A stretch of 64,000 bases of DNA, taken from a virus. Of the stretch, positions 3,584 through 42,454 are shown one piece after another. Under the pieces are notes generated by a model, which searched no databases, was not told where the DNA came from, and saw only the letters and a list, made by a program, of their open reading frames with translations. The position numbers and the translations under genes are program-made. The DNA lies in UHGV virus genome UHGV-0131811; one strand, 5' to 3'. The first letter of the stretch is position 1. Every line of letters starts with the position of its first letter.

Positions 3584-3604
3584 AAAAAGGCTCCCGAAGG
3601 AGCC
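3584..3604 (-). terminator. rho-independent terminator hairpin (GGCTCC-CGAA-GGAGCC) with U-run on minus strand
   Basis: Perfect 6-bp GC stem with tetraloop, followed by TTTTT on the minus strand, just downstream of gene 3617..4081. Confidence 0.55.
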
Positions 3605-3616
3605 TGTATCTTAACC

Positions 3617-4081
3617 TTAACCGAGGACTTTAGCAAGGATATTCGCAGCCATCGAAGAGGCTTTTGCAGCAGCAACTACGCCAGCTTTGACAGTGCTATC
3701 CTTAATAGCAGATACCGTTGCAGCATCAGTAAAGAGATAAGTGATTGTTTTAGAACCACTTGTAAAGGAAAGCATAAGAGTAGTTTCCAGATTGAAAGAG
3801 CGATACGGAGCACCTTCTTTAACGATACCTTCAGCACCTAACTCTGAAGCCTTACCCATATCATAGATAGTCATCAGGTTTTCTTTGTGTGCAGTCGTTG
3901 AACCAGCACCTTTTACGTGTTTTTTAACATTCAATAATGCACGATATTCACGAATGCTGCCATCAGCTTTTACATTAACAGCACGGAAAATTTTACCTTC
4001 AAAGTTACCTTGAATCATTTTACGAACTACTTCAGATTTGTTTGCCGTATCGTCCAGTGCTACCGTAATGATATTGTTCAT
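3617..4081 (-). CDS. hypothetical protein
   Basis: 154 aa ORF followed by terminator. Confidence 0.5.
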   Translation of the reverse strand: MNNIITVALDDTANKSEVVRKMIQGNFEGKIFRAVNVKADGSIREYRALLNVKKHVKGAGSTTAHKENLMTIYDMGKASELGAEGIVKEGAPYRSFNLETTLMLSFTSGSKTITYLFTDAATVSAIKDSTVKAGVVAAAKASSMAANILAKVLG

Positions 4082-4091
4082 AAGTTTTCTC

Positions 4092-4787
4092 TCAATGTTT
4101 AACTAACATGGTTTTAATGTGTGGAAGGATTCTGTTTACCTTCTGAACATTCTTCTCTGTATCTTCTATAAAGCATACTATATTAAAGTAAGGAAGAATG
4201 CAAGACTGAATCATCCTCACTTTCAAACTTTCTGCACTTATAGAGTTAGTTCCAAAACCACGCATAAAAAGCAAGTAATCATGCTCTATATTGTGCCTTA
4301 AAAACATCTCAGTAGGTATTCTCTGAGATTCACCTCTTGCTGTCAAGAGTCCAACTGCTGCATGATTTGCAATTGCATCAATAATGTTGAAAACATATGT
4401 TGGTTTTGCTCTTACAGAATCAAGAAGATTAGTGTACTGTGAGAATGACCCATCAGTCAATTCCGTTGAGCAATCTTCGTGATTAAAATTTGTAAGAACG
4501 CCATCAATATCTGCTAAGATGAGGTTACCTTTTTCTACAAGGTCTTTATTGACTATGACTAAACTATCACGCCTTACACCTATAGTTTGTCCAGTCTCTT
4601 TGTCCACAACGTTCACAATTGGTTCTGATGTGTGGAACTCTTCAAGTGAACATACAACTTCTCTTGCAGTGTCTTCAAAATCCCTGCACTGTTCTGGAGT
4701 CCATACACAGGAATCAAGACCTAACTCATGAGGATGCAAGTCATAAGCGTGGCACAGGACTTCATCAGACTTTCTTAATTTTTTCAT
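4092..4787 (-). CDS. HAD-superfamily phosphatase, putative (deoxy)nucleotidase
   Basis: LILADIDGVLTNF matches the HAD motif I (DxDG[TV]); phage nucleotide-metabolism context. Confidence 0.5.
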   Translation of the reverse strand: MKKLRKSDEVLCHAYDLHPHELGLDSCVWTPEQCRDFEDTAREVVCSLEEFHTSEPIVNVVDKETGQTIGVRRDSLVIVNKDLVEKGNLILADIDGVLTNFNHEDCSTELTDGSFSQYTNLLDSVRAKPTYVFNIIDAIANHAAVGLLTARGESQRIPTEMFLRHNIEHDYLLFMRGFGTNSISAESLKVRMIQSCILPYFNIVCFIEDTEKNVQKVNRILPHIKTMLVKH

Positions 4788-5313
4788 GATTTACCTTAGA
4801 AATGTTTGTTGCAAATTCACATTGAGCGATAACTTTCATATTGTTATAGACATCTTGAGAGTATTTCTTAGCTTTAGGGATTTTGTACGAATACCCAGCA
4901 TTATATGATGCTAAAACTTTTTGTAAAGTCTTCTTTGACTTTGGCTGACCATGTACCTTTGTCCAAAACTCAAGCTCTTTATGTGTTTCTTTTGCGGCAT
5001 AGTCAAAGTCTTTTAAGAGTTTCTTTTTAGCAACATTAGGACTAATTTTGTTACGCTTTACAACAGTCTTCAAGTGATTCTGGAAGATACCATAGTCATG
5101 GGTCTTTTTATTTTCTACCTTCAGACCTAACTCTGACTCTTGTAAGGCTATAGCTGCTAGAGTGATACCCCAACCTTTACCCATGTTATTCTCACCATAC
5201 TGGTAAGCTTTTAACATGTTCACTTTTTGGCTAATTGATAGCTCTGGGCAGTCAACTGCATAAGATAAGTGTGCTGTAAACATTAAGCACAAACCTAGAA
5301 TCAATTTCTTCAT
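4765..5313 (-). CDS. secreted lytic transglycosylase (SLT domain)
   Basis: Cleavable signal peptide (MKKLILGLCLMFTAHLSYA); catalytic-Glu region LQESELG, GIFQ, and AxYNAG motif. Confidence 0.6.
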   Translation of the reverse strand: MKKLILGLCLMFTAHLSYAVDCPELSISQKVNMLKAYQYGENNMGKGWGITLAAIALQESELGLKVENKKTHDYGIFQNHLKTVVKRNKISPNVAKKKLLKDFDYAAKETHKELEFWTKVHGQPKSKKTLQKVLASYNAGYSYKIPKAKKYSQDVYNNMKVIAQCEFATNISKVNHEKIKKV

Positions 5314-5374
5314 TGGTTCTCCTGTTTAGTTTATCGTGACAACAATTATACAGCACTCTGCACAAAATACAAAT

Positions 5375-5400
5375 AAAAAAGGCCGCCGAAGCAGCCTTTT
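5375..5400 (-). terminator. rho-independent terminator (bidirectional-looking)
   Basis: GGCCGC-CGAA-GCAGCC hairpin (one G-U wobble) flanked by A-run and T-run, downstream of rIIB-like gene. Confidence 0.5.
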
Positions 5401-9505: not shown

Positions 9506-9530
9506 AATTAAAAAGGCTCCCGTAGGAGCC
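9506..9530 (-). terminator. rho-independent terminator hairpin (GGCTCC-CGTA-GGAGCC)
   Basis: Perfect GC stem plus U-run on minus strand, 16 nt downstream of the Nampt-like gene. Confidence 0.55.
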
Positions 9531-9545
9531 TCTTATCATATACTT

Positions 9546-11327
9546 TTAAAGCTGATTGTCAATATTATTTCGAATATCACCAAGAGTTGTGTAACCGTAC
9601 TGCTCAGAGTCGCTAAAGACTAAACGTAAAGCACAAGCTGGATGTTCAAGTGCATCTGCAAAGCTCTGGAATCCATAGCCATCTACAGCTTTCAAATTCT
9701 CACCATCCCACATAGGTGCTACACCACCAAAGGCAGATTTCTTAACACCACTATCTGTTTTAGGGTCTTTTGCAAGCATAATCTCTTTGCCACCAATGCT
9801 TGCAAGAGTTGCTTTGACAGCAAATGCAAAGGTGTCACGAGTCATGTACTGGTAAGTGTAAGAGCCTACACCAAACACCACGTTAGAGCTTGCAAACCCC
9901 ATTTCATACAGACGCTTCAGGATTTCGTTTGCACGTTCCAACGTGATAGAGTCACCATAGATAAGTCCAATGTGCTCATCCAGTACCTTAAAACCTTTAG
10001 AGTTGATAGTTCCTCCAAAGATGTTATACAAGGTCTTAATAGCTCCATCAACCTCTGCTACAGGGCGTGTTACAACGTTTGCAGAACCAACCATATAAGC
10101 GTTCTTCAACATCACTGTATCAGCAACTTCAAAGTCTTCTCTGTCAACAACCATTTCGTAGCCTTCTGACAGTAGCCATCCAGCAATACCATAGTTGATG
10201 TTTTCAAGCTTCATGTTAAGAACAGCATTCAACATTGTGTCACTGACTTCCAGCTTGCTTAGGTGCTCGTAATAAGCCTTCTTAGCACATTCTAAGTGGA
10301 TTGCTTTATAACCTGTGACAATATGTACAGGGTCTCCAGAGTCAGGGCGAATTACCAGTTTGCCATCACGTTCCATAATTTCTTTACGAAGTGCTGGTAA
10401 GATTTCTGACACAGTTCTCCAGAAGTTATAAGTGTCTGAAACAACACTTGCAATACCAGTTGGGTAAGTTTCTGTTAAGAAACGACGGAAGGTTTGTAAC
10501 TCACCTTTAAAGCGTCTTTCTTCTTCAATCAACTCATTACCACCTTCCCAAGCAATGTTTGCACACATTACAGAGTGTTCAGTGGCTGGTACAGAGCTAC
10601 CAATATCAGAGATTGAGTAGGACTGTCCATAGATTCGTTTAGCCGTGTATACAGCAGGGAAGCTATCAGTCCCTTTAAAGCTGGTTAAGTGACCTACAGC
10701 GTTAAATGCGTCATCAGTAAAGCCGGACATACCACGCATAGCAAAATCATGGCACTGATAAGGTAAATGTAAGTCATTGTCACAAGTAAGGTCAGCCCAC
10801 TTCTTACAGATGCGTTTGTAATGCAATGCAATAGTTGCAATGGTGCAAGCCTTCCAAATTTCAGCAGAGAAAGCATCTTCCAGATAACCTGCTACCCAAT
10901 GAAAACCTGAAACAGTGTTCTGAAAGACAATCATCGGGACACGCATTGGAACAACTGTGCCTTCTTCTACAGCGTATACTTCAACTGGTAGATAACCTAA
11001 GTCGTGAAGTGCTTCCCAATGCTCTCGACCGATAGCATCTTTACCCAGAACACCATTCATGACTTCTAAGATTTCATCAATGGCTTCTTTTTTATCACGT
11101 TCAAAGAAAGTGGCATTCCAGTGGTCTATCAAGTAATCTTTAACAAAACGTTGAATACCAAAAGCCACTACACCGTCAATTGCTAAAGGGCTGTTAAACC
11201 ATTTATCACTACGTGGTGTCAGGTTGAACATCAAGTATTCTGTTGCACTAGGATACTGGTAAACATGACCAGATTTGTAAGCATCTGCATTTAAACCTGC
11301 TGGTACTGCATAAAGTGATTTAGTCAT
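9546..11327 (-). CDS. nadV: nicotinamide phosphoribosyltransferase-family enzyme (NadV/Nampt-like; possibly Namat of the NARP1 pathway)
   Basis: 593 aa; family-level resemblance to Nampt over its length (N-terminal NADAYKSGH... region, GTDS-type motif); adjacent to Prs-like gene. Confidence 0.75.
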   Translation of the reverse strand: MTKSLYAVPAGLNADAYKSGHVYQYPSATEYLMFNLTPRSDKWFNSPLAIDGVVAFGIQRFVKDYLIDHWNATFFERDKKEAIDEILEVMNGVLGKDAIGREHWEALHDLGYLPVEVYAVEEGTVVPMRVPMIVFQNTVSGFHWVAGYLEDAFSAEIWKACTIATIALHYKRICKKWADLTCDNDLHLPYQCHDFAMRGMSGFTDDAFNAVGHLTSFKGTDSFPAVYTAKRIYGQSYSISDIGSSVPATEHSVMCANIAWEGGNELIEEERRFKGELQTFRRFLTETYPTGIASVVSDTYNFWRTVSEILPALRKEIMERDGKLVIRPDSGDPVHIVTGYKAIHLECAKKAYYEHLSKLEVSDTMLNAVLNMKLENINYGIAGWLLSEGYEMVVDREDFEVADTVMLKNAYMVGSANVVTRPVAEVDGAIKTLYNIFGGTINSKGFKVLDEHIGLIYGDSITLERANEILKRLYEMGFASSNVVFGVGSYTYQYMTRDTFAFAVKATLASIGGKEIMLAKDPKTDSGVKKSAFGGVAPMWDGENLKAVDGYGFQSFADALEHPACALRLVFSDSEQYGYTTLGDIRNNIDNQL

Positions 11328-13052: not shown

Positions 13053-13103
13053 ATTATCTCCAAAATAAAAAGGGAACCTTTACAGTTCCCTTATAGTATC
13101 TGC

Positions 13104-13424
13104 TTACTGAGCTACTTTCAAGATTCTTGTGAATGGAATTTCACTTTCTTCCATTAATTCTTTAGTTTCTTTGGTAACTTTCACAAAGTTATCTAGGCAG
13201 ATAATCTTCTTATCTTTCTTACTATAGGTTAATTTAACCTTTTCAATATCTTTCTCAGAGCTTTTCTCTTCATTGAAGAGTTTTACAGCCTCTTTGAATG
13301 GGAGATATGAGCCATCATTATCACTAATGAATCCTGTACCACAATAGTAGGAGTTATGCTCTCTAGCCATAAACTGGCACAGTAAGAAAATCTGTAATTT
13401 ACGAGTGTTATAAACTTTGCTCAT
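13104..13424 (-). CDS. hypothetical protein
   Basis: 106 aa ORF. Confidence 0.45.
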   Translation of the reverse strand: MSKVYNTRKLQIFLLCQFMAREHNSYYCGTGFISDNDGSYLPFKEAVKLFNEEKSSEKDIEKVKLTYSKKDKKIICLDNFVKVTKETKELMEESEIPFTRILKVAQ

Positions 13425-15192: not shown

Positions 15193-15346
15193 TTTAACTT
15201 GCCTCTTAATTCACAATAAGAGAGTCCTAAAAAGAACCCTAGTAAGACAGAACCTATGAACAACCCAATAATACTCTCTGCCATGTCTAACATCCAATAA
15301 AAAAGGTGATGTAAGCCTATCAAGACTCACACCACCATGTCAAGTT

Positions 15347-17491: not shown

Positions 17492-17510
17492 TATTGCCCC
17501 TTTACATGCT

Positions 17511-17533
17511 AAAAAGGTCTCCGAAGAGACCCT
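17511..17533 (-). terminator. GC hairpin with CGAA/UUCG tetraloop and U-run about 20 nt upstream of nrdD start
   Basis: GGTCTC-CGAA-GAGACC; on the minus strand followed by UUUUU; could be a terminator/attenuator or processing site. Confidence 0.45.
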
Positions 17534-17539
17534 TTCATT

Positions 17540-17746
17540 TTAAATCTTTTTAGAAAACTTAGAAACGAGTTTTCTCAGTTTTTCAGTGATGCCTAGCTGT
17601 ATCTCTAATATTTCAAAGATAACCCATAGTAACATGGCCCCAAACAATGAACCTTGTTCAAAATCAGTAAATAGGTTAACAACAAGCATACCAATCACAA
17701 TAGCTGGTGCATCAACAACCAAACCTTCCCAAAGGCGTTTAAGCAT
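17540..17746 (-). CDS. small membrane protein
   Basis: 68 aa, hydrophobic. Confidence 0.4.
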   Translation of the reverse strand: MLKRLWEGLVVDAPAIVIGMLVVNLFTDFEQGSLFGAMLLWVIFEILEIQLGITEKLRKLVSKFSKKI

Positions 17747-21615: not shown

Positions 21616-21640
21616 GAAAAGAGCCTCCGAAGAGGCTCCC
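21616..21640 (-). terminator. GC hairpin (GAGCCTC-CGAA-GAGGCTC) plus U-run upstream of nrdA
   Basis: 7-bp stem, tetraloop, UUUUC on minus strand. Confidence 0.45.
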
Positions 21641-21644
21641 TAGT

Positions 21645-29621: not shown

Positions 29622-29682
29622 TTTATCTCCATTAATTACTAAAAAGCCCCCAACTAAGGAGGCTTGTAAGATTTATAAAGAC

Positions 29683-30907: not shown

Positions 30908-31164
30908 GTAAGCCTCTTTTAAGTAACTATTAAGTTTTAATCTTTTATCTTAACGTATTCTATACGTTATACTTTAAAGCTTTTTAAAAGCTATTAAATA
31001 ATCTTTTAAGAGCTTTAAAGTATCTGTATAGTTAAACTGTTAAGTAACCTTTTAAGTAAAAACCCACTTCGCAAAGATTAACACCTTGTCAAGTACATTG
31101 TCAACTTGCTTTTTATAATTTTTTGCAGTAATGTATGAGGTTAATGATTTTAGAGGGAGTAAAA
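30908..31164. promoter_or_regulatory. AT-rich divergent intergenic control region
   Basis: 257 bp between oppositely oriented first genes; palindromes CTTTAAAG and AGCTTTTTAAAAGCT; a TATAAT hexamer at 31114..31119. Confidence 0.45.
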
Positions 31165-33864
31165 ATGGAAAACGTAGATTTTAAAAACTTACATTTAGTT
31201 GGTGATACAGAAACTGATGGTTTACTCCTTGAGTTCACTAAAGTTCACGTAATGGCTTTCGCAGACTACAAATCTGACGACGAAGAACCACCAGTATGGG
31301 TCTTTACTGATGAGCCTATTCTCGGTCACAAGTACACTAAGTACATCAAGGGTGGATTACGTGAAGGTATTGAGTTTGCGTTGAAGGCAAAACGACTTTG
31401 TATCCATAATGGTCTCGGTTATGACTGGTGGGTTTTCAATCACATTGCACCGGATTTATGGAACTTTGATAACCCAAAATGTAAGCCGTGGAGTAATTTC
31501 TTTCAGGACTCTCTTATCCAGTCTCGTGTTCAGTGGATGGATAGACCAACTCCAAAGGGTTATAAAGGTGCTCATGGTTTGGCTGCATGGGGTGCTCGTG
31601 TTGGTGTTCGTAAGCCAGAGATTGAACATTGGGGTGTGTGGAATGCAGAAATCTTCACTCGTGTTGTAGAAGATATCCGTATTAACGCCAAAACTAAACG
31701 GGCACTTGATAACGAGTTTCTCAAGCTTAAGAAGTGTGGTATAGACACTTATGAAACCTACATGCGAGCTAAAGAAACATCTTTCTGGATGAGTCAACAG
31801 GCTATCAATGGTTGGAAAGCTGATAAAGAGCTTATGGAGTTCCATGTAAAGGAGCTTGACAAATTGACTAATGAACTTGCTTCAGAGGTTGAACCACATC
31901 TACCTCCAACTATTAAGACCAAAGGTAAAGTCACTGGAGAAGAGTTTGCAAAAGCTTGGAATGAGTATGTTGAAACATTCGGTCATGCAGATGGACTGAA
32001 GAGAATTACCAAGTACCCTAAAACAAAGTATCGTCAGCAGGTACGTAACGGTGAGATGCAGACTTATGAAATCAAACCATTTGGTAAGCCAACTACAAAG
32101 ATTTTTAACATTGAAAAGAGAAATTGCTATACACCAACCAACTCTGTAACTGGTGAAGAGTACAAGGAAGGCTTTGTAGCAATGAAGGATGCTCGTGCAA
32201 TTTGCAATGAGTTGAATGCAAAGATTGGTAAGAAATGCAAAGACTGGAAGCCAGTAAAAACAGTCAAAACTGTGAAGTACTATAACAGCCACGTTGTTAA
32301 CCACTTTGAACTTGAGTCAAGTCGCTACACAGGATTGATTGATGCACCATATACACCAATTGAGTTTGAAGTTTCTCGTATGACTCAGGTAGCAGTTGTA
32401 AAAGACTACTTGAAATCAGTTGGTTGGATTCCAGATGACTGGAACTACAAGAAAGACTCAGACGGTCGCCCTGTCAAAGTTTGTCGTTTCAAAGACAATA
32501 AAAAGATGATTACAAAACATCCTAAGTGGCAGGAGATGGTAGAACGGTGTGGATTGAGTTATGTCGAGCATGAAGGCGTCCAGTACATCGAGCATAACTG
32601 GTCTGTGAAGAAGTACACAGATTTGCTTGAACCTTGCTTAATCCGTACTTCACCAAAACTTACGGAATCATCTTATGATACGATTGAAGGTGAGCTTGGA
32701 CAGAAGATTGCTAAGTACTATACTTTGATGCACAGACGCAGAACTATTGAGAACTCAAAGGATGATGAAAAAGGTTGGTTGAACCAGATTCGTCCTGATG
32801 GTCGCCTTAGTGCTGGCGCAATGGTGTTTGGTACTTCAACTGGACGTATGACACAATATGGTATTGTAAACGTACCGTCTGGTGCTGCTGTCTATGGGGA
32901 ACCAATGAGGGCAGTGTGGATTTGCGAGGAAGGTACTAACGTTGTCTCTGTAGATATGAACTCAGCCCAGCTAGTTCTTCTTTGTAACTTTATGGGTGAT
33001 AAAGAGTTCACCAAAGCGGTAACGCAAGGTAAAGAAGAGATTGAGTTTATTCGTCAAGAAGATGGACGCTATTACTGCAAACATTTTGATGAGTACCTCA
33101 ACCCAGAGATTGATAAGTACCTTCGCTATGACTCTGAGAATGACCTGTACGTTGTCTATTCAGGGACTGATGCACATACACTGAACAGTATTTACTTTAG
33201 CTTGAATGATGAGCAGGACATCTTGACTTGTCGAGCTACTCAGGATGAGAATCTTCTTCATGAGATTAGTAAAGGTCGTAAGAAAGCTAAGAATGGTATC
33301 TATGCACTGCTGTTCGGTGCAGGGGATGAGAAGTTTGCTAAGACGATTAAAGCTGCAACTACTCAGGAAGGTGCACTGACTAAACAAACTTACTTTATTC
33401 GTTTGCCTAAAATTAAGAAGCTACTAGATGACTTGGAAGCTGACTACAAAGCAACTAAAAAGGCACTTGAAGAGGTGTTTGGTAAGACTGCTGCAATCTC
33501 TAAAGGGGGTTTTGTAAAGGTTGCTGGAGCTTGGTTGTGGTGTAAATCTCCACATAAGTTATTGAATTATTTGCTCATGGGTTCAGAGGCTCAGATTCAA
33601 AATGAGGCAATTAACCTTGCTTGTAGAAGAGCATGTGAAGAAGGATTGACAAAATTAAATGGACGAAAACCAGCAATTGGTGCTAGGCTTTTGCTGGCAT
33701 ACCACGATGAAAACAGTTGGGAATGCCCAGAAAGTATGACTCAAGAAGTTAAAGCCATAACTGACTGGATGTATGGTCAGGCATCTAAGAATTTAGGTTT
33801 GAAGAGTGAGACGCTTGTAACTGGCACAGGTAAGGTTGGTAAGAGCTGGTTGGAAGTACATTGA
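31165..33864 (+). CDS. DNA polymerase, family A, with 3'-5' exonuclease domain
   Basis: Exo I motif VGDTETDGL; C-terminal YHDE motif; start set at MENVDF (GGAG 7 nt upstream), not the longest-ORF start 31135. Confidence 0.85.
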   Translation: MENVDFKNLHLVGDTETDGLLLEFTKVHVMAFADYKSDDEEPPVWVFTDEPILGHKYTKYIKGGLREGIEFALKAKRLCIHNGLGYDWWVFNHIAPDLWNFDNPKCKPWSNFFQDSLIQSRVQWMDRPTPKGYKGAHGLAAWGARVGVRKPEIEHWGVWNAEIFTRVVEDIRINAKTKRALDNEFLKLKKCGIDTYETYMRAKETSFWMSQQAINGWKADKELMEFHVKELDKLTNELASEVEPHLPPTIKTKGKVTGEEFAKAWNEYVETFGHADGLKRITKYPKTKYRQQVRNGEMQTYEIKPFGKPTTKIFNIEKRNCYTPTNSVTGEEYKEGFVAMKDARAICNELNAKIGKKCKDWKPVKTVKTVKYYNSHVVNHFELESSRYTGLIDAPYTPIEFEVSRMTQVAVVKDYLKSVGWIPDDWNYKKDSDGRPVKVCRFKDNKKMITKHPKWQEMVERCGLSYVEHEGVQYIEHNWSVKKYTDLLEPCLIRTSPKLTESSYDTIEGELGQKIAKYYTLMHRRRTIENSKDDEKGWLNQIRPDGRLSAGAMVFGTSTGRMTQYGIVNVPSGAAVYGEPMRAVWICEEGTNVVSVDMNSAQLVLLCNFMGDKEFTKAVTQGKEEIEFIRQEDGRYYCKHFDEYLNPEIDKYLRYDSENDLYVVYSGTDAHTLNSIYFSLNDEQDILTCRATQDENLLHEISKGRKKAKNGIYALLFGAGDEKFAKTIKAATTQEGALTKQTYFIRLPKIKKLLDDLEADYKATKKALEEVFGKTAAISKGGFVKVAGAWLWCKSPHKLLNYLLMGSEAQIQNEAINLACRRACEEGLTKLNGRKPAIGARLLLAYHDENSWECPESMTQEVKAITDWMYGQASKNLGLKSETLVTGTGKVGKSWLEVH

Positions 33865-34387
33865 TGGTGTTGAAATGATTACAGAAATTCGTCTTAAGGA
33901 GCTATTGGACTACGACCCCGAAACAGGGGTCTTTACTTGGAAGTTTAGAGAAGGTAATGCAAACTTTAACTCTAGATTTGGAGGTAAGAGGGCTGGAAAC
34001 TACAGAACAAATACTGATGGACACAAGTCAGTTCAGTTGCTGATTGATGGAAGGGGTTACCAAGCAAATCGTTTAGTTATCTTGTATATGGATGGATATC
34101 TACCTGATAAAACCTTACAGGTTGACCATAAGAATGGGGACGGTTGGGGCAATAGGTACTTGAATTTAAGGGTTTGTACAGCTTCACAAAACTCTTGCAA
34201 TCGGTCAAGAGAGTCCCCATCTGGGTTGCCAAAAGGTGTACAGAAGATAAGTAAAAGGTTTCGAGCAATGATACGTTTACAAGGTAAAAACTATCATCTT
34301 GGTATGTTTGACACACCAGAAGAAGCCCATAAAGCTTACTGTGAAGCTGCTATTAAACTCCACGGAGAATTTGCAAAACTAAGTTGA
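33836..34387 (+). CDS. HNH homing endonuclease with AP2-type domain
   Basis: VDHKNGDGWGNRYLNLRVCTASQN plus AP2-like C-terminus; shares the YDPETGVFTW block with 23772..24296; start may be the internal Met at about 33878. Confidence 0.65.
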   Translation: MVRAGWKYIDGVEMITEIRLKELLDYDPETGVFTWKFREGNANFNSRFGGKRAGNYRTNTDGHKSVQLLIDGRGYQANRLVILYMDGYLPDKTLQVDHKNGDGWGNRYLNLRVCTASQNSCNRSRESPSGLPKGVQKISKRFRAMIRLQGKNYHLGMFDTPEEAHKAYCEAAIKLHGEFAKLS

Positions 34388-34438
34388 CAAGGTGCTCATG
34401 GAAGAGTACCATATACAATATCTTATATAGGAGGGCTT

Positions 34439-34648
34439 ATGAGCCATCGTGGAAGAACCCATGCAGCAATGATGAAAGGTGCTTCAAAGGAAACTATCAA
34501 GAACCGTAAGCAGAAGTTGTTTGAGAGAATGAATAGACTCATTGATAACACTTCCCTGTCTGGTGGTGAGAAAGTTTTCCTTAAAAGTAGCCTTAAAAGC
34601 ATTGCACAAGAACTTGTAGATATTGAATATTGGAGACATCAAAAATGA
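34439..34648 (+). CDS. hypothetical protein
   Basis: 69 aa ORF. Confidence 0.45.
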   Translation: MSHRGRTHAAMMKGASKETIKNRKQKLFERMNRLIDNTSLSGGEKVFLKSSLKSIAQELVDIEYWRHQK

Positions 34649-34863
34649 CACTTGCAGACGTTATTCAGCAACTTCATGATAACTGCTACACTCCAGATTT
34701 AATTCAGGAGATGTCCATTGTAGTCATGCCTAGCAAGTTCGTAAAAACCTTTAACAACGACGCTTTAAGGTCTACACACATCCTTATCGTTGACGGTAAG
34801 ATTGCAAAAGACCGTACTGGAGTACTCAAAGGTGAACGTGTTGATATTCTGGAGTTGCTATGA
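34645..34863 (+). CDS. hypothetical protein
   Basis: ATGA overlap with upstream stop, GGAG 9 nt upstream; longest-ORF start 34630 less likely. Confidence 0.45.
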   Translation: MTLADVIQQLHDNCYTPDLIQEMSIVVMPSKFVKTFNNDALRSTHILIVDGKIAKDRTGVLKGERVDILELL

Positions 34864-35006
34864 AGAAAATGTACAGTCTCTGGGGAAGGGTTGGTAAAGG
34901 TTTTGACTGGACACTTCTTCGTTCAAACGTTAAACGTAGTGACTTACCAGAACTCATCACTCACTATTTAAAAACATACAGAGAGGTAGACTATCGTGAA
35001 CAATAA
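34860..35006 (+). CDS. hypothetical small protein (48 aa)
   Basis: ATGA-coupled small ORF with GGAG upstream; below the ORF-track length cut-off. Confidence 0.3.
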   Translation: MKKMYSLWGRVGKGFDWTLLRSNVKRSDLPELITHYLKTYREVDYREQ

Positions 35007-35253
35007 GGTTAAGAGTTGTGTGAAAGCAATGGTTGCACTTGGAGTAATTTTTCTGGCTGGCTGCAACCCATCTTATGAAAACAAAGATGCTTCTTACAGC
35101 CTCCCTCCAGAGATGCAAGACTGCAAAATCTACAAACTCAATGGTGATGCTATAAGCAGAGATATTGTTGTTGTCAGATGCCCAAACTCTCAAACAACAA
35201 CATCTTATAGCTATGGCAAAAATGGTCAATCACATACTACGGTTATTGAGTGA
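34996..35253 (+). CDS. small lipoprotein (candidate superinfection-exclusion factor)
   Basis: GTG start; signal peptide with lipobox (FLAGC); 85 aa. Confidence 0.5.
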   Translation: MNNKVKSCVKAMVALGVIFLAGCNPSYENKDASYSLPPEMQDCKIYKLNGDAISRDIVVVRCPNSQTTTSYSYGKNGQSHTTVIE

Positions 35254-35263
35254 GGTTTTCACG

Positions 35264-35470
35264 ATGGAAGCCCTAGTAAACTATATCTATTGTTATGATG
35301 TTGTTCACTCCACTACAACCGTAGCTCAACGTAACCCAATCGTCCCACGAGAAGGTGAATTGGTTCGCATTGAGGGTTGGACTTACACTGTGGAAAGTAT
35401 CATTCATAAGTTTGATGTTGCTGGTGATGTTCAAGTTATCGACGTAGAGATTGGTGGTAAGAGAAAATGA
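35264..35470 (+). CDS. hypothetical protein
   Basis: Start at MEALVNY with GAGG upstream, avoiding overlap with the lipoprotein gene. Confidence 0.4.
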   Translation: MEALVNYIYCYDVVHSTTTVAQRNPIVPREGELVRIEGWTYTVESIIHKFDVAGDVQVIDVEIGGKRK

Positions 35471-35625
35471 AACCTAAGCAAACAATGACAGATGCAACCT
35501 TCACAGTGCGCAGTTTCGAAAGGTTGCACATCAAAGATGCAAAAGATACACCAAAATGCGTTGTGCATTTCATTAAAAGGCGTAGTAACATGTCATATAT
35601 GAAATCTGACAAAGGCAAGAGATAA
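35467..35625 (+). CDS. hypothetical small basic protein (52 aa)
   Basis: ATGA-coupled small ORF filling the gap before 35626. Confidence 0.3.
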   Translation: MKPKQTMTDATFTVRSFERLHIKDAKDTPKCVVHFIKRRSNMSYMKSDKGKR

Positions 35626-35844
35626 ATGAACAAAGAAGATAAGCATAAAAATACTGTACGAACTCCTGATGGAAAGGTTCAATCCTTCATCCTTACAGTT
35701 GGTGGAAAGCCATTTCGTTGCCACTGCGGAGCAAACTGTTTCCATAAACCAGATAAAAATGACTTAGAGCTTTACGCATGTAATGCTTGTGACACTTGGT
35801 ATCACTCAGAGGTGAAAAATGACAACACTGTACAAACAAAATAA
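35626..35844 (+). CDS. small Zn-finger-like protein
   Basis: CHCGANC...CNAC cysteine/histidine pattern. Confidence 0.45.
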   Translation: MNKEDKHKNTVRTPDGKVQSFILTVGGKPFRCHCGANCFHKPDKNDLELYACNACDTWYHSEVKNDNTVQTK

Positions 35845-36919
35845 AGACGGTTCCTTCAACATCTGGTCATGCGGTGCTATAGGTAACAAAGTTATTACAA
35901 CCTACGGTAAAGAAAATGGCAAGATGATGTTTGAAGAGTATACAGCAGAACCTAAAAACATCGGTAAAAAGAATGAGCGTAACGCTGAACAGCAAGCTCT
36001 CTTTGAAGTTGCTGCTAAGTATAAAAAGCAAGTTGACCGCAAAGGTTATGCTTACACAAAAGAGTCTGCACAGAATACTGAGAAGGTAGGTGTACAGCTT
36101 GCTCATGATGCTGCAAAGGTTAGTCATGCAAAGTATCTGAAGTTCCCTGCTGATGCTCAACCAAAACTTGATGGTGTTCGTTGTAGAATTTCAAGAGATG
36201 CTGATTCAGTTAGCTTCACGGCTTATTCTCGTGAGAATACTGTTTACAACGTCCCAGTAGAACTAATCCCAGATTTGCTTTTGTTGCTTAAATTACATCC
36301 ACAAGTCGAAGACTTTGATGGTGAGATTTATGCTCATGGTTGGGACTTAGAAGATATTGTGTCTATGATTAAGAATGCTGACAATCCAGACCGACATCTA
36401 CTCCAGTTCTACTGGTATGATATCTGTGACAGTGCTAAGACGTGGCCTGAGCGTAGAGATATTATTGAGACTTCACCATTGAATGACTTCAGAGACGGCT
36501 GTAAAGTTGTCCCTGTTAAGTCTCGTCGTGTTAACTCTTGGGAAGAGTTTGATGAAGCTCATGATAAGTGGGTTGAAGCTAAGTTTGAAGGTGCAATGTA
36601 CCGTTCAATCTCTGAAGACTCCTTCTATGAGTGTTGTCACCGTTCGTACTTCTTGATTAAGCACAAGAAGATGCACACTGAAGAGTTTAAAGTGACTGGT
36701 GTCAAGACTGATAAACGTGGTCATGGCAAGTTCGTTGTAGAGACTCTTCCTAATGTCTTTGTAGATGTCTCATGGAAGACTACTCATGAGAAGAAACAGT
36801 ATCTTGCTGAGCATCCTGATGAGTTTATCGGGAAGCCTTTAACGGTTCAGTTCCAGAAGATGACTCGTAAGGGCTCTTTACAGTTCCCTGTCGGGCTAGT
36901 TATTAGGGATTATGAATAA
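35819..36919 (+). CDS. ATP-dependent DNA ligase
   Basis: Adenylation motif I KLDGVR; about 366 aa. Confidence 0.7.
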   Translation: MTTLYKQNKDGSFNIWSCGAIGNKVITTYGKENGKMMFEEYTAEPKNIGKKNERNAEQQALFEVAAKYKKQVDRKGYAYTKESAQNTEKVGVQLAHDAAKVSHAKYLKFPADAQPKLDGVRCRISRDADSVSFTAYSRENTVYNVPVELIPDLLLLLKLHPQVEDFDGEIYAHGWDLEDIVSMIKNADNPDRHLLQFYWYDICDSAKTWPERRDIIETSPLNDFRDGCKVVPVKSRRVNSWEEFDEAHDKWVEAKFEGAMYRSISEDSFYECCHRSYFLIKHKKMHTEEFKVTGVKTDKRGHGKFVVETLPNVFVDVSWKTTHEKKQYLAEHPDEFIGKPLTVQFQKMTRKGSLQFPVGLVIRDYE

Positions 36920-36922
36920 ACT

Positions 36923-37069
36923 ATGTTAAGTACAATCATTCTGTTTGCATTAGTTATCTTTGTGTTGTCTTACATCACAAGTAAGCTTTTGAACACATCC
37001 TTTGCAATGGGTGTCTTGTTCACAATCTTCTGTTTTGTAACGCATATAGTTATCAGGACTTTTATATAA
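36923..37069 (+). CDS. small hydrophobic membrane protein (48 aa)
   Basis: Two hydrophobic segments; starts 4 nt after the ligase stop; preferred over antisense ORF 36950..37138. Confidence 0.35.
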   Translation: MLSTIILFALVIFVLSYITSKLLNTSFAMGVLFTIFCFVTHIVIRTFI

Positions 37070-37074
37070 AGTTG

Positions 37075-37102
37075 TTGACATAGAAAATTTGGTGAGTATA
37101 CT
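37075..37102 (+). promoter_or_regulatory. sigma70-like promoter (TTGACA-16 nt-TATACT) with inverted repeat overlapping -10
   Basis: Consensus -35 at 37075..37080 and -10 at 37097..37102; GGTGAGTA (37091..37098) pairs with TACTCACC (37123..37130). Confidence 0.5.
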
Positions 37103-37167
37103 GAGCAGCATAAACCAACGGGTACTCACCAACATCACTTAAGAGTCTTCTAAGAGGGTTTTTAAGT

Positions 37168-37262
37168 AATGTGATGTTTGGTTTGGTGTGGTCAGGTAAT
37201 GTGATGTCTGGTTTAGTGCGGTGATGTGCGGTCCGGTAAGGTCCGGTGCGGTAAAGTGCGGG
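37168..37262 (+). repeat. phased pentamer array A: 19 units with invariant GT every 5 nt
   Basis: Read directly: aatGT gatGT ttgGT ttgGT gtgGT cagGT ...; no open frame. Confidence 0.9.
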
Positions 37263-37302
37263 TAGTTAGTCTCAGCTACATTAAAATGAGACTTACCTTT
37301 TT
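37261..37302 (+). terminator. type-1 hairpin (AGTCTCA / GCTACATTAAAA / TGAGACT) followed by TTTTT
   Basis: 7-bp stem plus GGTA/TACC extension, then T-run; same loop with a different stem in locus 2. Confidence 0.45.
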
Positions 37303-37329
37303 AAAAGGTCTTTAAGAGGGTCTTTTAAT

Positions 37330-37399
37330 AAGGTGCTGTATGGTAAGGTGATGTCTGGTGTGGTAGGGTGAGGTTAAGTGAGGTGAGGTATGGGTGGAT
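37330..37399 (+). repeat. phased pentamer array B: 14 units NNGGT
   Basis: aagGT gctGT atgGT aagGT gatGT ctgGT gtgGT agGGT gagGT ... Confidence 0.9.
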
Positions 37400-37425
37400 G
37401 GTAGTAGCCACGTTAAAAATCTACC
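37400..37425 (+). other. type-2 hairpin (GGTAG / TAGCCACGTTAAAAAT / CTACC)
   Basis: 5-bp stem; locus-2 counterpart has GGCAG/CTGCC, a compensatory change. Confidence 0.4.
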
Positions 37426-37483
37426 AAGTTTCTAAAGAGTCTTCTGTTGAGGGTTCTTTACAAACAACTTAACAATCAACTAA

Positions 37484-38089
<606 letters not shown>

Positions 38090-38091
38090 TT

Positions 38092-38532
38092 ATGAATACA
38101 AAAGCATTAGCAGCAAAGTTTAGTTACGGTGACACTGTATCACACTCTGAGATGGATACCTTCTTAGGTATTGTGAAGCCAACTTATCAAGGTGACATTG
38201 TTAAGTACGAAGATGAAATGAAGGCTTATGCGCTTACACGTCTAAACCGACTTGAGAAATTTATTGAGAAGCTTCTTAAAGAAGAGAAGATTTATCTGGT
38301 TGCTTCAATGGGTGTTGGTTATCGTGTGGTTGAGCCTAAACATCAAGCAACTATTGCAAAACGCAAAATGTCTGGTAAGATTGGTCGAGCTTTAAAGCAA
38401 GCCACTCAAGCAATTGAGAATGTGAACACTATGGCACTTAGCCATCAAGAACGTTCACGACTGATTGAACAGCAAAACCATTTAGCTGCTATGAAAGCTA
38501 ACATTAACAAGCAACGCAGAAAACCTTTCTAA
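38092..38532 (+). CDS. hypothetical protein
   Basis: 146 aa helical ORF followed by terminator. Confidence 0.55.
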   Translation: MNTKALAAKFSYGDTVSHSEMDTFLGIVKPTYQGDIVKYEDEMKAYALTRLNRLEKFIEKLLKEEKIYLVASMGVGYRVVEPKHQATIAKRKMSGKIGRALKQATQAIENVNTMALSHQERSRLIEQQNHLAAMKANINKQRRKPF

Positions 38533-38543
38533 GTTGACTAGGT

Positions 38544-38566
38544 AGCCTCTTCGGAGGCTCCTTTTT
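38544..38566 (+). terminator. rho-independent terminator (AGCCTC-TTCG-GAGGCT plus T-run)
   Basis: GC stem with UUCG tetraloop then TTTTT; directly precedes repeat locus 2. Confidence 0.6.
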
Positions 38567-38594
38567 AAAAGGTCTTTAAAGAGGGTCTTTTAAT

Positions 38595-38664
38595 AAGGTA
38601 AGGCACGGTTATGTCAGGTATGGTACGGTACGGTTAGGTAAGGTGAGGCGGAGTAAGGTATGGG
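38595..38664 (+). repeat. phased pentamer array C: 14 units NNGGT
   Basis: aagGT aagGC acgGT tatGT cagGT atgGT acgGT acgGT tagGT ... Confidence 0.9.
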
Positions 38665-38666
38665 TA

Positions 38667-38697
38667 GTTAATCGGAGCTACATTAAAATTCGATTAC
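38667..38697 (+). other. type-1 hairpin (TAATCG / GAGCTACATTAAAATT / CGATTA)
   Basis: Loop core GCTACATTAAAAT as in locus 1, stem sequence different but still complementary. Confidence 0.4.
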
Positions 38698-38731
38698 ATC
38701 ACTTAAGAGTCTTTTAAGAGGGTTTTTAAGT

Positions 38732-38806
38732 GAGGTGTGGCACGGTAATGTTAGGTAGGGTCAGGTCAGGTCAGGTGAGGTAAGGTAAGGTGATGTATGG
38801 AAGGAT
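38732..38806 (+). repeat. phased pentamer array D: 15 units NNGGT
   Basis: gagGT gtgGC acgGT aatGT tagGT agGGT cagGT cagGT cagGT gagGT aagGT aagGT ... Confidence 0.9.
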
Positions 38807-38832
38807 GGCAGTAGCCTTATAAAAAATCTGCC
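38807..38832 (+). other. type-2 hairpin (GGCAG / TAGCCTTATAAAAAAT / CTGCC)
   Basis: Counterpart of 37400..37425 with compensatory stem change. Confidence 0.4.
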
Positions 38833-38851
38833 AAATAAGCTATAAAATCTG

Positions 38852-38880
38852 TTGACAAGTCAGGTGTTATAGCTTATTTT
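38852..38880 (+). promoter_or_regulatory. sigma70-like promoter (TTGACA-17 nt-TATTTT)
   Basis: Consensus -35 at 38852..38857; -10-like TATTTT at 38875..38880; upstream of gene 38925. Confidence 0.45.
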
Positions 38881-38924
38881 TATACTCAATGTAATACAAA
38901 ATTTAATATAACTTTGAGGTCATT

Positions 38925-39308
38925 ATGAAAAAGATTTTATTAGCCGCTGCAATGGTTATGGTAATGAACTTACCAGTCAATGCAACAGAACTTCCAAATG
39001 TGGACTTATCAGGTGTTCCAAAAGACACTTGCCAGATTGTTAAAGGTGTTGCTTTGACTAATGGTGAGTTACTTAAACCAATCTCTGAAGAGTCTTTAAC
39101 AGAGATGACTGATAAGGTAACTGACTATCAGTATCGTGTTCTTGCAGAGTATTTCCTGCAATCTGCAAACATTAAAGAGAAGCACCATGATGATATTGAT
39201 GTACAGGCGATGCTCAACCACCGTATCCAGTTTAAAGAAGATTTGATGCAAAAAGCTATGTATGGTGTTGAGTATTTCTTAGAAAACAGAAGCTGCACAG
39301 GTATTTGA
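38925..39308 (+). CDS. secreted/periplasmic protein
   Basis: Signal peptide (MKKILLAAAMVMVMNLPVNA) with likely cleavage after VNA; 127 aa. Confidence 0.55.
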   Translation: MKKILLAAAMVMVMNLPVNATELPNVDLSGVPKDTCQIVKGVALTNGELLKPISEESLTEMTDKVTDYQYRVLAEYFLQSANIKEKHHDDIDVQAMLNHRIQFKEDLMQKAMYGVEYFLENRSCTGI

Positions 39309-39309
39309 T

Positions 39310-39522
39310 ATGGCTCTTAAAAAGTTACATCCCAGAAGCGGTTATGGTAAGATAATTGACGATACAGACGGCTTTACAGTCTTTACAGTTATCTGTCAAG
39401 ATGATTCACAGATTGAAAAGGTTCTTGATGATTATCTTAATGATAAACGTGAAAAGGTTAGGGCTACAAACATAGATTCATTGATTGACACTTCACGTAA
39501 ACGGAAGAAGAAAGATGAATGA
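39310..39522 (+). CDS. hypothetical protein
   Basis: 70 aa ORF. Confidence 0.45.
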   Translation: MALKKLHPRSGYGKIIDDTDGFTVFTVICQDDSQIEKVLDDYLNDKREKVRATNIDSLIDTSRKRKKKDE

Positions 39523-39814
39523 GGTTTTTGACCCTTATGCTCCACAAGATGATTGGGAGGCTGATAGAGAGGCTGAAATGGAGAGTTATATTTGTCCAAT
39601 GGATGTAGACGAAATGAGAGACTTCGTTGCACATCGTTTTAAGAGAGAGATTAAATCCAGAGGTCTTTCTCAAGAACAAGTCGCTAAAATTTGTGGTATC
39701 TCTCAAGCTCGTGTATCCAACATAATCCACCTCACTGGGAATGTCTCTCTTGAGTATATGTTGGAAGTGTGTGAAAAATTTGGTGTTAATTTCAATTTAA
39801 GGTTGGCAGATTAA
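39515..39814 (+). CDS. helix-turn-helix DNA-binding protein
   Basis: LSQEQVAKICGISQARVSNI is an HTH-like segment; start at MNEVFDPY overlapping the upstream stop. Confidence 0.5.
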   Translation: MNEVFDPYAPQDDWEADREAEMESYICPMDVDEMRDFVAHRFKREIKSRGLSQEQVAKICGISQARVSNIIHLTGNVSLEYMLEVCEKFGVNFNLRLAD

Positions 39815-39815
39815 T

Positions 39816-40175
39816 ATGAAACGTGAAAACATTATCCACTCTGAAAACTTCGCATTAGGCTTTTATGGTGCACCTACTCACCTTGAAAAGTACTACGGTG
39901 TAAAAATTCTTTCCAATCTCATTATGGCTTACAAAGATGGTAAGATTAAGCACACTGAGAAGAAACGTGTCATGGGCTACATGGCTGTAGGTTCAGCAAT
40001 CTCGAACATTAAGCTGGAAACCACTAGCAGTCAGATTGTAAAAGACCACTTCATCAAAGAGCTTTACCATAATCTTGATGGTGTAGATGTTCAGGCTGTT
40101 TGGCTGGATGTTGACGGTCACAACTATACAAGTTTCGTTTTCAAAAACGATGACATTAAGTGTTTGTTCCCTTAA
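39816..40175 (+). CDS. hypothetical protein
   Basis: 119 aa ORF. Confidence 0.45.
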   Translation: MKRENIIHSENFALGFYGAPTHLEKYYGVKILSNLIMAYKDGKIKHTEKKRVMGYMAVGSAISNIKLETTSSQIVKDHFIKELYHNLDGVDVQAVWLDVDGHNYTSFVFKNDDIKCLFP

Positions 40176-40188
40176 TAGGTGATTAACC

Positions 40189-40704
40189 ATGATTGATATC
40201 TACTTACAAGATGCTCATGCAGACTTCCTTAAAGTGATGCTTAAAAAGTTTATGGCTTCACAGGGTGAGAATGAAGCATCTTTTAAAATAGTTACATGTG
40301 GCGATGAAGCTGGTTTTGTTGAGATTGAACATGAAGGTACTGGAAAGATTGTTTGTAAACTACCTGACAGTATGTTCTCTAGTGCATTCTTAACAAAGAC
40401 TAGCATAAATGTTAAGCTTGTCCCTCAGATTGAAACATACTCTGGTACAGATTACCCTAAAGGTTTCAAGTCGCTGATGAAGTACTTCTTAGATGACTTT
40501 GTGAGTAATCTTCTGAGGGAGGTAAAAGAAAGTCGTACAGTGTTGACTGTAGAGAACATTGGAGGAACTATCAGGGTTACTTCTGACTGTTTTGTGATGA
40601 GCCTCTTCGACTTCGTTCCTAAGAACTTTGATGGTATTCTGGATGAAGAAGATGACTGTGTAGACTTTATATTGGTTCTTGAACCAGTTTTTGAGGTTAA
40701 ATAA
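40189..40704 (+). CDS. hypothetical protein
   Basis: 171 aa ORF. Confidence 0.45.
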   Translation: MIDIYLQDAHADFLKVMLKKFMASQGENEASFKIVTCGDEAGFVEIEHEGTGKIVCKLPDSMFSSAFLTKTSINVKLVPQIETYSGTDYPKGFKSLMKYFLDDFVSNLLREVKESRTVLTVENIGGTIRVTSDCFVMSLFDFVPKNFDGILDEEDDCVDFILVLEPVFEVK

Positions 40705-40965
40705 ATGAAAATTGAACACTGCTATGAGCCTGACGGAACACCTATCCGATGTCCACATTGTGGGTGTACAGACTTGCAAGGCGAGGTAAGTGAAATAGTC
40801 AACGGTCATATCGCTGAAGAGAGTACAAGGTGTACAGAGTGTAATGAAATCATTGCTTTCTGGGCTTATGGTTCATACCAACCTACACCACACTTAATCT
40901 ACCATAGCAATAAAGCTGTGAAGAATGTTATCAACTGGTTCATTAAGAAAGGGTTTACAAAATGA
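40705..40965 (+). CDS. Zn-ribbon protein
   Basis: CPHCGC...CTEC cysteine pairs. Confidence 0.45.
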   Translation: MKIEHCYEPDGTPIRCPHCGCTDLQGEVSEIVNGHIAEESTRCTECNEIIAFWAYGSYQPTPHLIYHSNKAVKNVINWFIKKGFTK

Positions 40966-41507
40966 TTAAGCTAATATTTGCAAGTGGTGAAAACGGTGAA
41001 TTTGGTACACCGACTGGTATGCCGTGGCCTCGACATAAACAGGACATGCAAGAGTTTAAGAGACTCACTAAAAATAACTTAGTAGTCATGGGTAATGAGA
41101 CTTTTAAGACTCTGGGTAGTAAACCTTTACCAGAACGTGCAAACCTCATCTTAACAAATTCTGTACCATACTTAGGCATAGACTTTGGCAAAGATGATGT
41201 AATGTATGCTAAAGCCAGTAAAGAGTCATTTGGAGCATTTTTGAAGTATCTTGATAGCTCTATTGATGAAGATGTCTTTGTAATTGGTGGTGCAGGTATC
41301 CTTGTCAATGCTTTACCGTATGCTAGTGTGGTGTTCCATACTGTTTTCCATAAAGTTACTGAAGAGGCCACTGTGCATTTACCTTTTGAAAACTTCTTTG
41401 AGAAGCTGTATGATAACCGTGTGTTTACAAAGGTACAGTCAAAACCATCAGAGGATGGTAAAGCAACTTTTGAAATTTATGTTCCACAAGTAAAAGGACA
41501 CTTTTGA
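40962..41507 (+). CDS. frd: dihydrofolate reductase
   Basis: IFA...GMPW, VVMGNETFKTLG and PLPERANLILT align with bacterial/T4 DHFR motifs. Confidence 0.8.
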   Translation: MIKLIFASGENGEFGTPTGMPWPRHKQDMQEFKRLTKNNLVVMGNETFKTLGSKPLPERANLILTNSVPYLGIDFGKDDVMYAKASKESFGAFLKYLDSSIDEDVFVIGGAGILVNALPYASVVFHTVFHKVTEEATVHLPFENFFEKLYDNRVFTKVQSKPSEDGKATFEIYVPQVKGHF

Positions 41508-41508
41508 T

Positions 41509-42408
41509 ATGTCACAAGCAGATACAAGTTACAAAAATATCCTGAACCATGTTTTATCCGTTGGTGAACTGCGTACTACACGAACTGGAGATGTTATCTC
41601 TGCTTTTGCTCCACCTCAGTTTCGTTTTGATATGAGGACTGGTTTCCCGCTCTTAACATCTAAACAGGTGTTTACACGGCAAGTTATTGGGGAGGCTTTA
41701 TGGTTCCTGAATGGTGAGAATAAGCTGGGTGAACTTCGTTACCGTACTTGGGATGAAAATGACGGAGAACGCTGGACTATCTGGTCAGATGATTTTAAAC
41801 GCTGGTTAAGTTCTAATTATTCTTCTGAACAAGATTGGTTAGAAGATGCAGGTGGGAGAATCTATGGGGTTCAGTGGAGAAACTTTGAAGGTCATAATGG
41901 TTGTGTTGTAGACCAGCTAGAGACCTTAGTAACGAAGATGAAGGGTGATATCACAGACCGTTACATGCTTGTTAATGCTTGGAATGCAGCAGATATTGCA
42001 GCAAACTCAATGGCTTTAGCACCTTGTCATGTTCTGTTTCAGATTTATATCACTAATGAGGGTGAAGTTGACTTACAGTGGTATCAACGTTCAGTAGACA
42101 CCTTTTTAGGACTTCCGTTTAATATTGCGTCTTATGGTTTCATCTTAGAAGTTCTTTGTAAGATGACTGGATACACTCCACGGTACTTGATAGGTGTCTT
42201 TGGGGATACCCAGATTTATCAGAACCATATGAAGCAGGTTTATGAACTGATGAACAATGAAGAGTTCCATGCACCTACTTTTGAGATTGGTGTACCACTT
42301 AACACACTAAGTGACCTAAAACACCTTACTGCAAGTGATTTTATTGGTGGCATTTACAACTACCAACATGCAGGAAAGATTGAAGCACCTCTGTCAGTAG
42401 GTAAGTAA
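41509..42408 (+). CDS. thyA: thymidylate synthase
   Basis: Active-site region LAPCHVLFQIY and conserved downstream blocks; 299 aa. Confidence 0.9.
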   Translation: MSQADTSYKNILNHVLSVGELRTTRTGDVISAFAPPQFRFDMRTGFPLLTSKQVFTRQVIGEALWFLNGENKLGELRYRTWDENDGERWTIWSDDFKRWLSSNYSSEQDWLEDAGGRIYGVQWRNFEGHNGCVVDQLETLVTKMKGDITDRYMLVNAWNAADIAANSMALAPCHVLFQIYITNEGEVDLQWYQRSVDTFLGLPFNIASYGFILEVLCKMTGYTPRYLIGVFGDTQIYQNHMKQVYELMNNEEFHAPTFEIGVPLNTLSDLKHLTASDFIGGIYNYQHAGKIEAPLSVGK

Positions 42409-42454
42409 AAACAAAAAAGGCTCCTTTTTACGGGAGCCTTAAATTTTATTTTTC
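42407..42454. terminator. bidirectional rho-independent terminator between convergent blocks
   Basis: AAGGCTCC / TTTTTACG / GGAGCCTT hairpin flanked by A-run and T-run. Confidence 0.6.

Follow-up and report, generated by a model that had tools for sequence, protein, structure and literature searches.

What short, nearly identical hairpins do between the genes of a phage, and how transcription passes them where they stand just before a start codon, is the question raised by the 64,000-nucleotide (nt) stretch of UHGV virus genome UHGV-0131811 analysed here (the window). Seven such hairpins, called sites A to G below, occur in its non-coding DNA, two of them shortly before nrdD and nrdA. The window belongs to the genus Felixounavirus and represents a Felix O1-like myovirus; over bases 1-24000 its identity to E. 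coli O157 typing phage 15 is 97.6%, and each of about 160 records spans at least 80% of this segment. The hairpins are very likely intrinsic terminators for the host RNA polymerase, probably leaky by design. Their identity as terminators follows from anatomy, conservation and prior annotation; the leakiness is suggested by features of the surrounding sequence.

As terminators these elements are already known and published. Table 2 of Whichard et al. (2010, Viruses 2:710, PMC3185647), the genome paper on Felix O1, gives rho-independent terminators that correspond to site A (t5), site B (t2), site D (t116), site E (t111) and site G (t79/t80, on both strands), and the entries t13, t64 and t124 correspond to window positions 903-944, 55538-55567 and 13070-13092. 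The same or nearly the same sequences (ggctgcttcggcggcc, ggctccttcgggagcc, gagcctcttcggaggctc, ggtctcttcggagacc and ggctcctttttacgggagcc) stand at orthologous positions in Felix O1 and wV8, with no essential difference from the present hairpins. The GenBank record of wV8 (EU877232) contains features named 'Rho-independent terminator' before nrdD (site D), after the thymidylate synthase gene (site G) and at other places; the text of the wV8 genome paper mentions no terminators, promoters or repeats. Site F (38544) is seen neither in Table 2 nor in the wV8 record, and site C (9515) is not among the Table 2 entries examined. As a discovery the hairpins carry little weight, since a table for Felix O1 gave most of them in 2010, the wV8 record annotates two, and UUCG hairpins between phage genes are textbook knowledge. 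What the Felix O1 paper leaves unexplained is how transcription bypasses its numerous terminators (PMC3185647).

Intercistronic CUUCGG hairpins have been known in T4 since 1988, with links to termination as well as to the stability of mRNA (Tuerk et al. 1988, PNAS 85:1364, summarised in PMC8948821). The two sets share a very stable, C-G-closed tetraloop concentrated between phage genes. They differ in phage family, the present one being Ounavirinae and not the T4 group, in a comparison that draws on the secondary summary and on general knowledge.

Hairpin anatomy on the coding strand

The coding strand was set by the map of open reading frames (ORFs) together with RefSeq annotation. From position 1 to about 31000 the genes are on the minus strand; those at 31135-42408 are plus-strand genes, and from 42446 onward the minus strand is used once more. 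About 5% of the window is non-coding, and all seven hairpins fall there. The GC-skew profile was rejected as a signal, for it merely tracks gene orientation. A preliminary description of the window had listed the seven hairpin sequences, and all of them were found where it placed them; at five sites (3589, 5381, 9515, 17516 and 21621) it had written the non-coding strand, because the genes at 1-31000 lie on the minus strand. The CGAA and CGTA loops that it reported there are, on the mRNA strand, UUCG at sites A, B, D and E and UACG at 9515. Membership in the UNCG tetraloop class, the coding-strand orientation and the conserved sigma-70 hexamers adjoining several hairpins are points that it lacked.

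Four of the minus-strand hairpins carry UUCG. Site A (3583..3605) reads AGGCUCC-UUCG-GGAGCCU followed by UUUUU, with a predicted stability of -14.0 kcal/mol; it separates a hypothetical gene, whose stop is at 3617, from an Rz-like spanin gene (ATG at 3564). Site B (5375..5400; -14.7 kcal/mol), located 3' of rIIB, is AAAAGGCUGC-UUCG-GCGGCCUUUU with a U-run; its core on the mRNA strand, GGCUGC-UUCG-GCGGCC, contains a single G.U pair. Site D (17510..17537; -15.8 kcal/mol) is (UGAAAG)GGUCUC-UUCG-GAGACC plus UUUUU, the U-run occupying 17511..17515, and is placed after a 68-aa ORF and before the nrdD ATG (17491). Site E (21617..21641; -15.2 kcal/mol) is (AGG)GAGCCUC-UUCG-GAGGCUC plus UUUU, between a 111-aa ORF and the nrdA ATG (21598). 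Site C (9510..9534; -16.6 kcal/mol), also on the minus strand and 3' of the nicotinamide phosphoribosyltransferase gene, is AAGAGGCUCC-UACG-GGAGCCUUUU with a U-run and the core GGCUCC-UACG-GGAGCC.

On the plus strand, site F (38540..38566; -13.6 kcal/mol) consists of AGCCUC-UUCG-GAGGCU, then CC, then UUUUU. It follows ORF 38092-38532 and is itself followed by a 365-nt non-coding repeat region. Site G (42417..42440) has the arms AAGGCUCC and GGAGCCUU around an 8-nt loop and lies between the convergent thymidylate synthase gene (plus strand) and ORF 42446-42817 (minus strand). From its U-rich flanks and the convergent genes, it is predicted that site G can act as a bidirectional terminator.

These features are those of intrinsic terminators. 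The stems are G+C-rich, 6-10 base pairs (bp) long, with a short loop, and every hairpin lies past a stop codon and outside coding sequence. A U-run abuts the 3' stem at six of the seven sites, in agreement with the U-runs of the preliminary description: UUUUU or UUUUUU at A to D, UUUU at E, UUUUU after CC at F, and U-rich sequence on both sides at G. Its terminator reading, which had been published for the orthologous Felix O1 sites and annotated for those of wV8, is supported. Six sites form a C(UNCG)G class, all C-G closed, with UUCG at A, B, D, E and F and UACG at C; site G, with its 8-nt loop, falls outside it. All six UNCG loops are on the coding strand, with the U-runs 3' on that strand. 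Predicted stabilities of the coding-strand RNA range from -13 to -16.6 kcal/mol, with z-scores of -3.1 to -5.4 against shuffled sequences. Perfect TTCG hairpins with a stem of at least 5 bp number 4 in the window against a mean of 0.04 in 300 dinucleotide-preserving shuffles, and UNCG hairpins of that stem length number 5 against 0.12 (300 shuffles). An Rfam scan of the whole window gave no match at the gathering score; Rfam holds no terminator family.

The hairpins might instead serve mainly as RNA stability or processing elements, either as barriers to 3' exonucleases or by stabilising the 5' end left when RNase E cuts the neighbouring AU-rich tract. According to the T4 summary, CUUCGG hairpins have such roles there, for example 5' of the gene 32 mRNA (PMC8948821). 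In the window an AU-rich single-stranded tract lies 3' of each hairpin, with the next start 21-24 nt away, and the closeness of the stop codons suggests that termination may often be repressed. The conserved U-run directly at the 3' stem in six of the seven sites, however, is required for termination and not for stability, and this account is considered unlikely as the main function. As a terminated RNA bears the same protective hairpin, a stability role is compatible with termination. Processing by RNase III, an enzyme that requires about two helical turns, is unlikely with stems of 6-10 bp and was rejected on that ground.

Conservation and reuse of the stems

The comparison drew on some 130 related loci, taken from phages in GenBank and from IMG/VR. 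Across the three genera Felixounavirus, Suspvirus and Mooglevirus, 15 of 118 hairpin columns are variable, compared with 61 of 210 in the 30 nt upstream and 85 of 210 in the 30 nt past the U-run; within the U-runs of sites A to E, zero or one column of five varies. Between genera, site E changes from GAGCCUC/GAGGCUC to GGGUCUC/GAGACCC, which amounts to two compensatory pair changes (A-U to G-C and C-G to U-A), and at site B the G.U pair becomes A-U in relatives. In two distant phages, whose NrdD has about 50% amino-acid identity, an unrelated G+C-rich hairpin with a T-run occupies the same position before nrdD; the pre-nrdD site there retains position and structure, not sequence.

The same stems recur within a lineage. 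In the window, GGCTCC is used at sites A, C and G and AGCCTC at E and F, and in Mooglevirus and Suspvirus the GGGTCTC stem is found at D and E alike. Relatives resembling Erwinia phages carry (AA)GGGACTC-TTCG-GAGTCC(TT) with a T-run at no fewer than three intergenic sites, that is, at least three (L065 3357-3380 and 8420-8439; L066 3919-3940 and 6673-6694), and one of these hairpins comes after TTGTCA-18-TAAACT, so that a promoter-then-hairpin layout recurs. Such reuse exceeds independent drift and suggests the copying of a short cassette or, less likely, a lineage-specific factor. When the tails from hairpin to ATG were aligned, every pair scored better than shuffles through the shared order of T-run, GGAG and ATG, a pattern in which paralogy and common function are inseparable.

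A factor of this kind could be a phage protein, such as an antiterminator, a nuclease or a regulator, with the hairpins as its binding sites. A parallel is lambda nut/boxB, in which the same short hairpin is reused within one phage and differs among phages; boxB, however, has its own GNRA-like pentaloop, lacks a U-run and lies well 3' of the transcription start, and no N-like protein was identified here. Reuse within lineages with different stems between lineages would suit such binding sites, as would stems and loops that are near-invariant across genera. Invariance is nevertheless expected of any structural element, because single stem mutations break pairing, and local copying accounts for the reuse equally well. 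At least four different stems occur in one genome, the loop tolerates UACG, UCCG, UUUG and inversion to CGUA in natural isolates (UACA is a further variant among relatives), and no candidate protein was identified. Binding by a lineage-specific protein is thus quite improbable.

Loop inversion was observed at two sites. The 8-nt loop of site G (42419-42438) flips between TTTTTACG and CGTAAAAA among phages sharing 98-99% identity, and does so in Felixounavirus as well as in Mooglevirus (loci L103-L132). Three relatives (L038, L046 and L047) carry the loop of site C in inverted form, with CGUA for UACG. Recurrent inversion of this type probably results from template switching at palindromes. It shows that the sequences behave as palindromes in replication and, together with the perfect inverted repeats recurring in the genome, would fit elements that act as DNA, either as protein-binding or recombination sites or as a mobile repeat of the REP/MITE type. 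A DNA palindrome, however, has no need for six UNCG loops on the coding strand or for U-runs 3' on that strand. The positions are moreover syntenic in the three genera with no presence/absence pattern, and the flanks resemble one another only in T-run, GGAG and ATG, unlike those of a REP or MITE. On strand bias and synteny this account was rejected and retains only a very slight probability.

Some relatives have an extra small ORF directly after the module at site C (L001 10132-10579, L004 2950-3262 and several IMG/VR loci); it precedes the gene that follows the module in the window. The promoter, hairpin and Shine-Dalgarno sequence at site C may thus form a hotspot of small-gene gain and loss.

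Probable leakage and predicted overlapping promoters

The preliminary description had placed two hairpins about 20 nt before the starts of nrdD and nrdA; the measured distances are 24 nt and 22 nt. Since a spacing of 21-24 nt is also found at no fewer than four other terminators, that is, at least four (3589, 9515, about 29645 and about 25318), the spacing at the nrd genes is not special. The suggestion that the two nrd hairpins are leaky attenuators is plausible as to leakage; as something peculiar to these genes it does not stand, for it fits all the terminators of this phage. The word 'essential', which had been applied to the nrd genes, was too strong. Phage nrd genes are dispensable in T4, and for this reason they are probably non-essential here.

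From stop codon to hairpin, the spacers measure 12 nt at A, 18 at B, 15 at C, 8 at D, 6 at E, 11 at F, and 10 and 7 on the two sides of G; the shortest are those before nrdA (6 nt) and nrdD (8 nt). With the lambda tR2 terminator in E. coli, termination was about 90% when the stop codon lay at 28 bp and less than 10% at 5 bp; a distance above roughly 27 nt was required for full efficiency, since a trailing ribosome blocks hairpin folding (PMC4824070). By the same logic the present terminators should leak whenever ribosomes on the upstream ORF keep pace with the polymerase: across spacers of 6-18 nt, a closely trailing ribosome would keep the 5' arm from folding and the polymerase would read through. 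Ribosome-repressed terminators such as the lambda tR2 reporter (PMC4824070) and the pyrBI attenuator cited there likewise have the hairpin a few nt past a translated ORF. The present sites differ from them in having no leader peptide or metabolite sensing, the upstream ORFs being ordinary phage genes.

A second route past the hairpins may be provided by promoters. Site A is preceded by the predicted sigma-70 promoter TTGCTA-17-TAAGAT (3608..3636, minus strand), which ends 3 nt before the hairpin; the -10 of relatives is TATGAT, TAATAT or TATTAT, with TA..AT always retained. At site C, TTGACA-16-TATGAT (9535..9562, minus strand) has 11 of 12 matches and ends 4 nt before the GGCTCC stem, and its hexamers are conserved in the three genera, with a variable spacer. 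A weak candidate, TTTCTA-17-TAAAAT (17537..17565, minus strand), is present at site D, where relatives have TTGAAA, TTGATA or TTGAGA, 17 nt, and TAATAT or TAAAAT, ending 3-5 nt before the hairpin. A further terminator hairpin on the minus strand, 13070-13092 (AAGGGAACU-GUAAA-GGUUCCCUU with a U-run), does not belong to the UNCG class and was absent from the preliminary description; the predicted promoter TTGAAA-17-TACTAT directly abuts it (13070..13121 for the two together, minus strand). In relatives the hexamers generally keep TTG... and TA...T, and the spacers and the middle positions of the -10 vary. The Felix O1 promoter search was limited to intergenic DNA (PMC3185647) and would therefore overlook hexamers that overlap gene 3' ends.

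Of 12 co-directional terminators, 4 (A, C, D and 13070-13092) thus have a promoter-like site ending 0-5 nt upstream, where the intergenic baseline is 0.065 per site (P = 0.006). If transcription starts at the customary distance of about 7 nt past the -10, these promoters would begin their RNA inside the 5' arm, most clearly at A and 13092. An RNA begun there would be without the base of the stem and would therefore escape termination. Site B differs in that its predicted promoter, TTGTAT-16-TATAAT (5345..5372, minus strand; TTGAAA-16-TATAAT in Mooglevirus relatives, with TATAAT invariant), lies directly 3' of the U-run; its -10 ends about 30 nt past the U-run. At site E, the run of only four U, which is UUCU in two relatives, may weaken the nrdA terminator.

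Terminators coupled to promoters have been described in bacteria (Fletcher et al., bioRxiv 2026, 10.64898/2026.08.19.745784). In these the -10 is 3' of the T-tract, the DNA of the stem-loop doubles as the -35, and the start is about 8-11 bp past the termination site. Common to both cases is that the terminator and promoter of adjacent co-directional units occupy one short intergenic DNA. At A, C, D and 13092, in contrast, the -10 is 5' of the hairpin and the predicted start falls about 15-20 nt before the termination site, so that the order is the opposite one. A -10 just past the T-tract was found at none of these four sites nor at B, and only site B and a hairpin at 15305-15336 approach the published layout. 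A compact conserved module may be tentatively proposed, with rather less than even confidence, in the order -35, -10, hairpin, U5, Shine-Dalgarno sequence and ATG. In such a module the hairpin would stop polymerases arriving from upstream and the RNA of the overlapping promoter would escape; the likeness of stems within a lineage would reflect copying of the module or, less likely, a hairpin-binding factor.

Several points weigh against the reading of the hairpins as leaky terminators, or against parts of it. The CC spacer of 2 nt separates the stem of site F from its UUUUU. Most stems are invariant in about 30 relatives, only E and B are informative, and the covariation is thin; given the reuse of stems in lineages, the 'compensatory' change at site E could mean that another hairpin was copied into the place of this cassette, and not that the pairs were compensated step by step. 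The values for ribosome occlusion were obtained with a single plasmid-borne terminator and not with the present sites. At D the -10 overlaps the stop codon and the -35 is poor in the window (3 of 6 matches), the predicted starts at C and D could leave a hairpin of 5-6 bp intact, and the sequence before site E yielded no convincing promoter. A literature search found no transcriptome or start-site map of a Felix O1-like phage.

Neighbouring elements and the transcription units of Felix O1-like phages

Three further minus-strand terminators annotated in wV8 lie in the window. Two intergenic ones were absent from the preliminary description: 29644-29665 (AAGCCUCC-UUAGUU-GGGGGCUU) and about 25318-25341 (AAAGCCC...GGGGCUUUUU). 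The former includes CCUCCUUA, which equals the anti-Shine-Dalgarno sequence at the 16S rRNA 3' end, possibly by coincidence. The third, at 15305-15336 between nrdD and the next gene, has a 14-bp stem and UUUUUU. Its 5' arm comes directly after a conserved TTGACA, and a weak TAGGCT follows 18 nt later in the loop and 3' arm, a second type of terminator/promoter overlap that is nearer to the published promoter-coupled layout. The plus-strand element GACCCC-GAAACA-GGGGTC (33914-33931) was rejected as a terminator because it lies inside ORF 33836-34387 and is hence coding; its copies in relatives sit within HNH endonuclease genes (L002 25124-25141 and L003 26234-26251).

Next to site F, four copies of a non-coding unit of about 135-160 nt were observed on the plus strand (37136-37420 and 38563-38830), flanking the ORFs at 37487-38532. 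In each unit the leader AAGAG(G)TCTTT(T)AAGAGGGT(C)TTTTAA(T/G) is followed by 14-20 NNGGT pentamers with a strict 5-nt period and then by a short hairpin of the form GTAG..CTAC, or GGTAG..CTACC in some and GGCAG..CTGCC in others, a covarying pair. The first unit comes after a strong predicted promoter, TTGACA-16-TATACT (37075-37102), and the third is abutted by the UUCG terminator F. In relatives, 47 distinct arrays show free variation of the two spacer bases and retention of GGT at 82-92%; this percentage is circular in part, since a GGT-like core was a condition of the parsing. The units had no Rfam match, and the wV8 record annotates only a 58-nt repeat, 'DR_4', in this region. By analogy, the arrays resemble protein-binding RNA of the TRAP type, with triplets and spacers, or origin iterons with primase sites of the T7 type (GGGTC/TGGTC).

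For the phage itself, the terminators would split the early and middle gene blocks into transcription units and leave the 3' ends of mRNAs guarded by a very stable hairpin, and their leakiness would allow nrdD, nrdA and other downstream genes still to be expressed. Ribosome occlusion and conserved promoters with predicted starts inside the hairpins are two candidate answers to the bypass question of the Felix O1 paper. Felix O1-like phages serve in the typing and biocontrol of Salmonella and E. coli. A correct map of their transcription units would aid engineering, and very short terminator/promoter modules of this type could be used as compact insulator parts.

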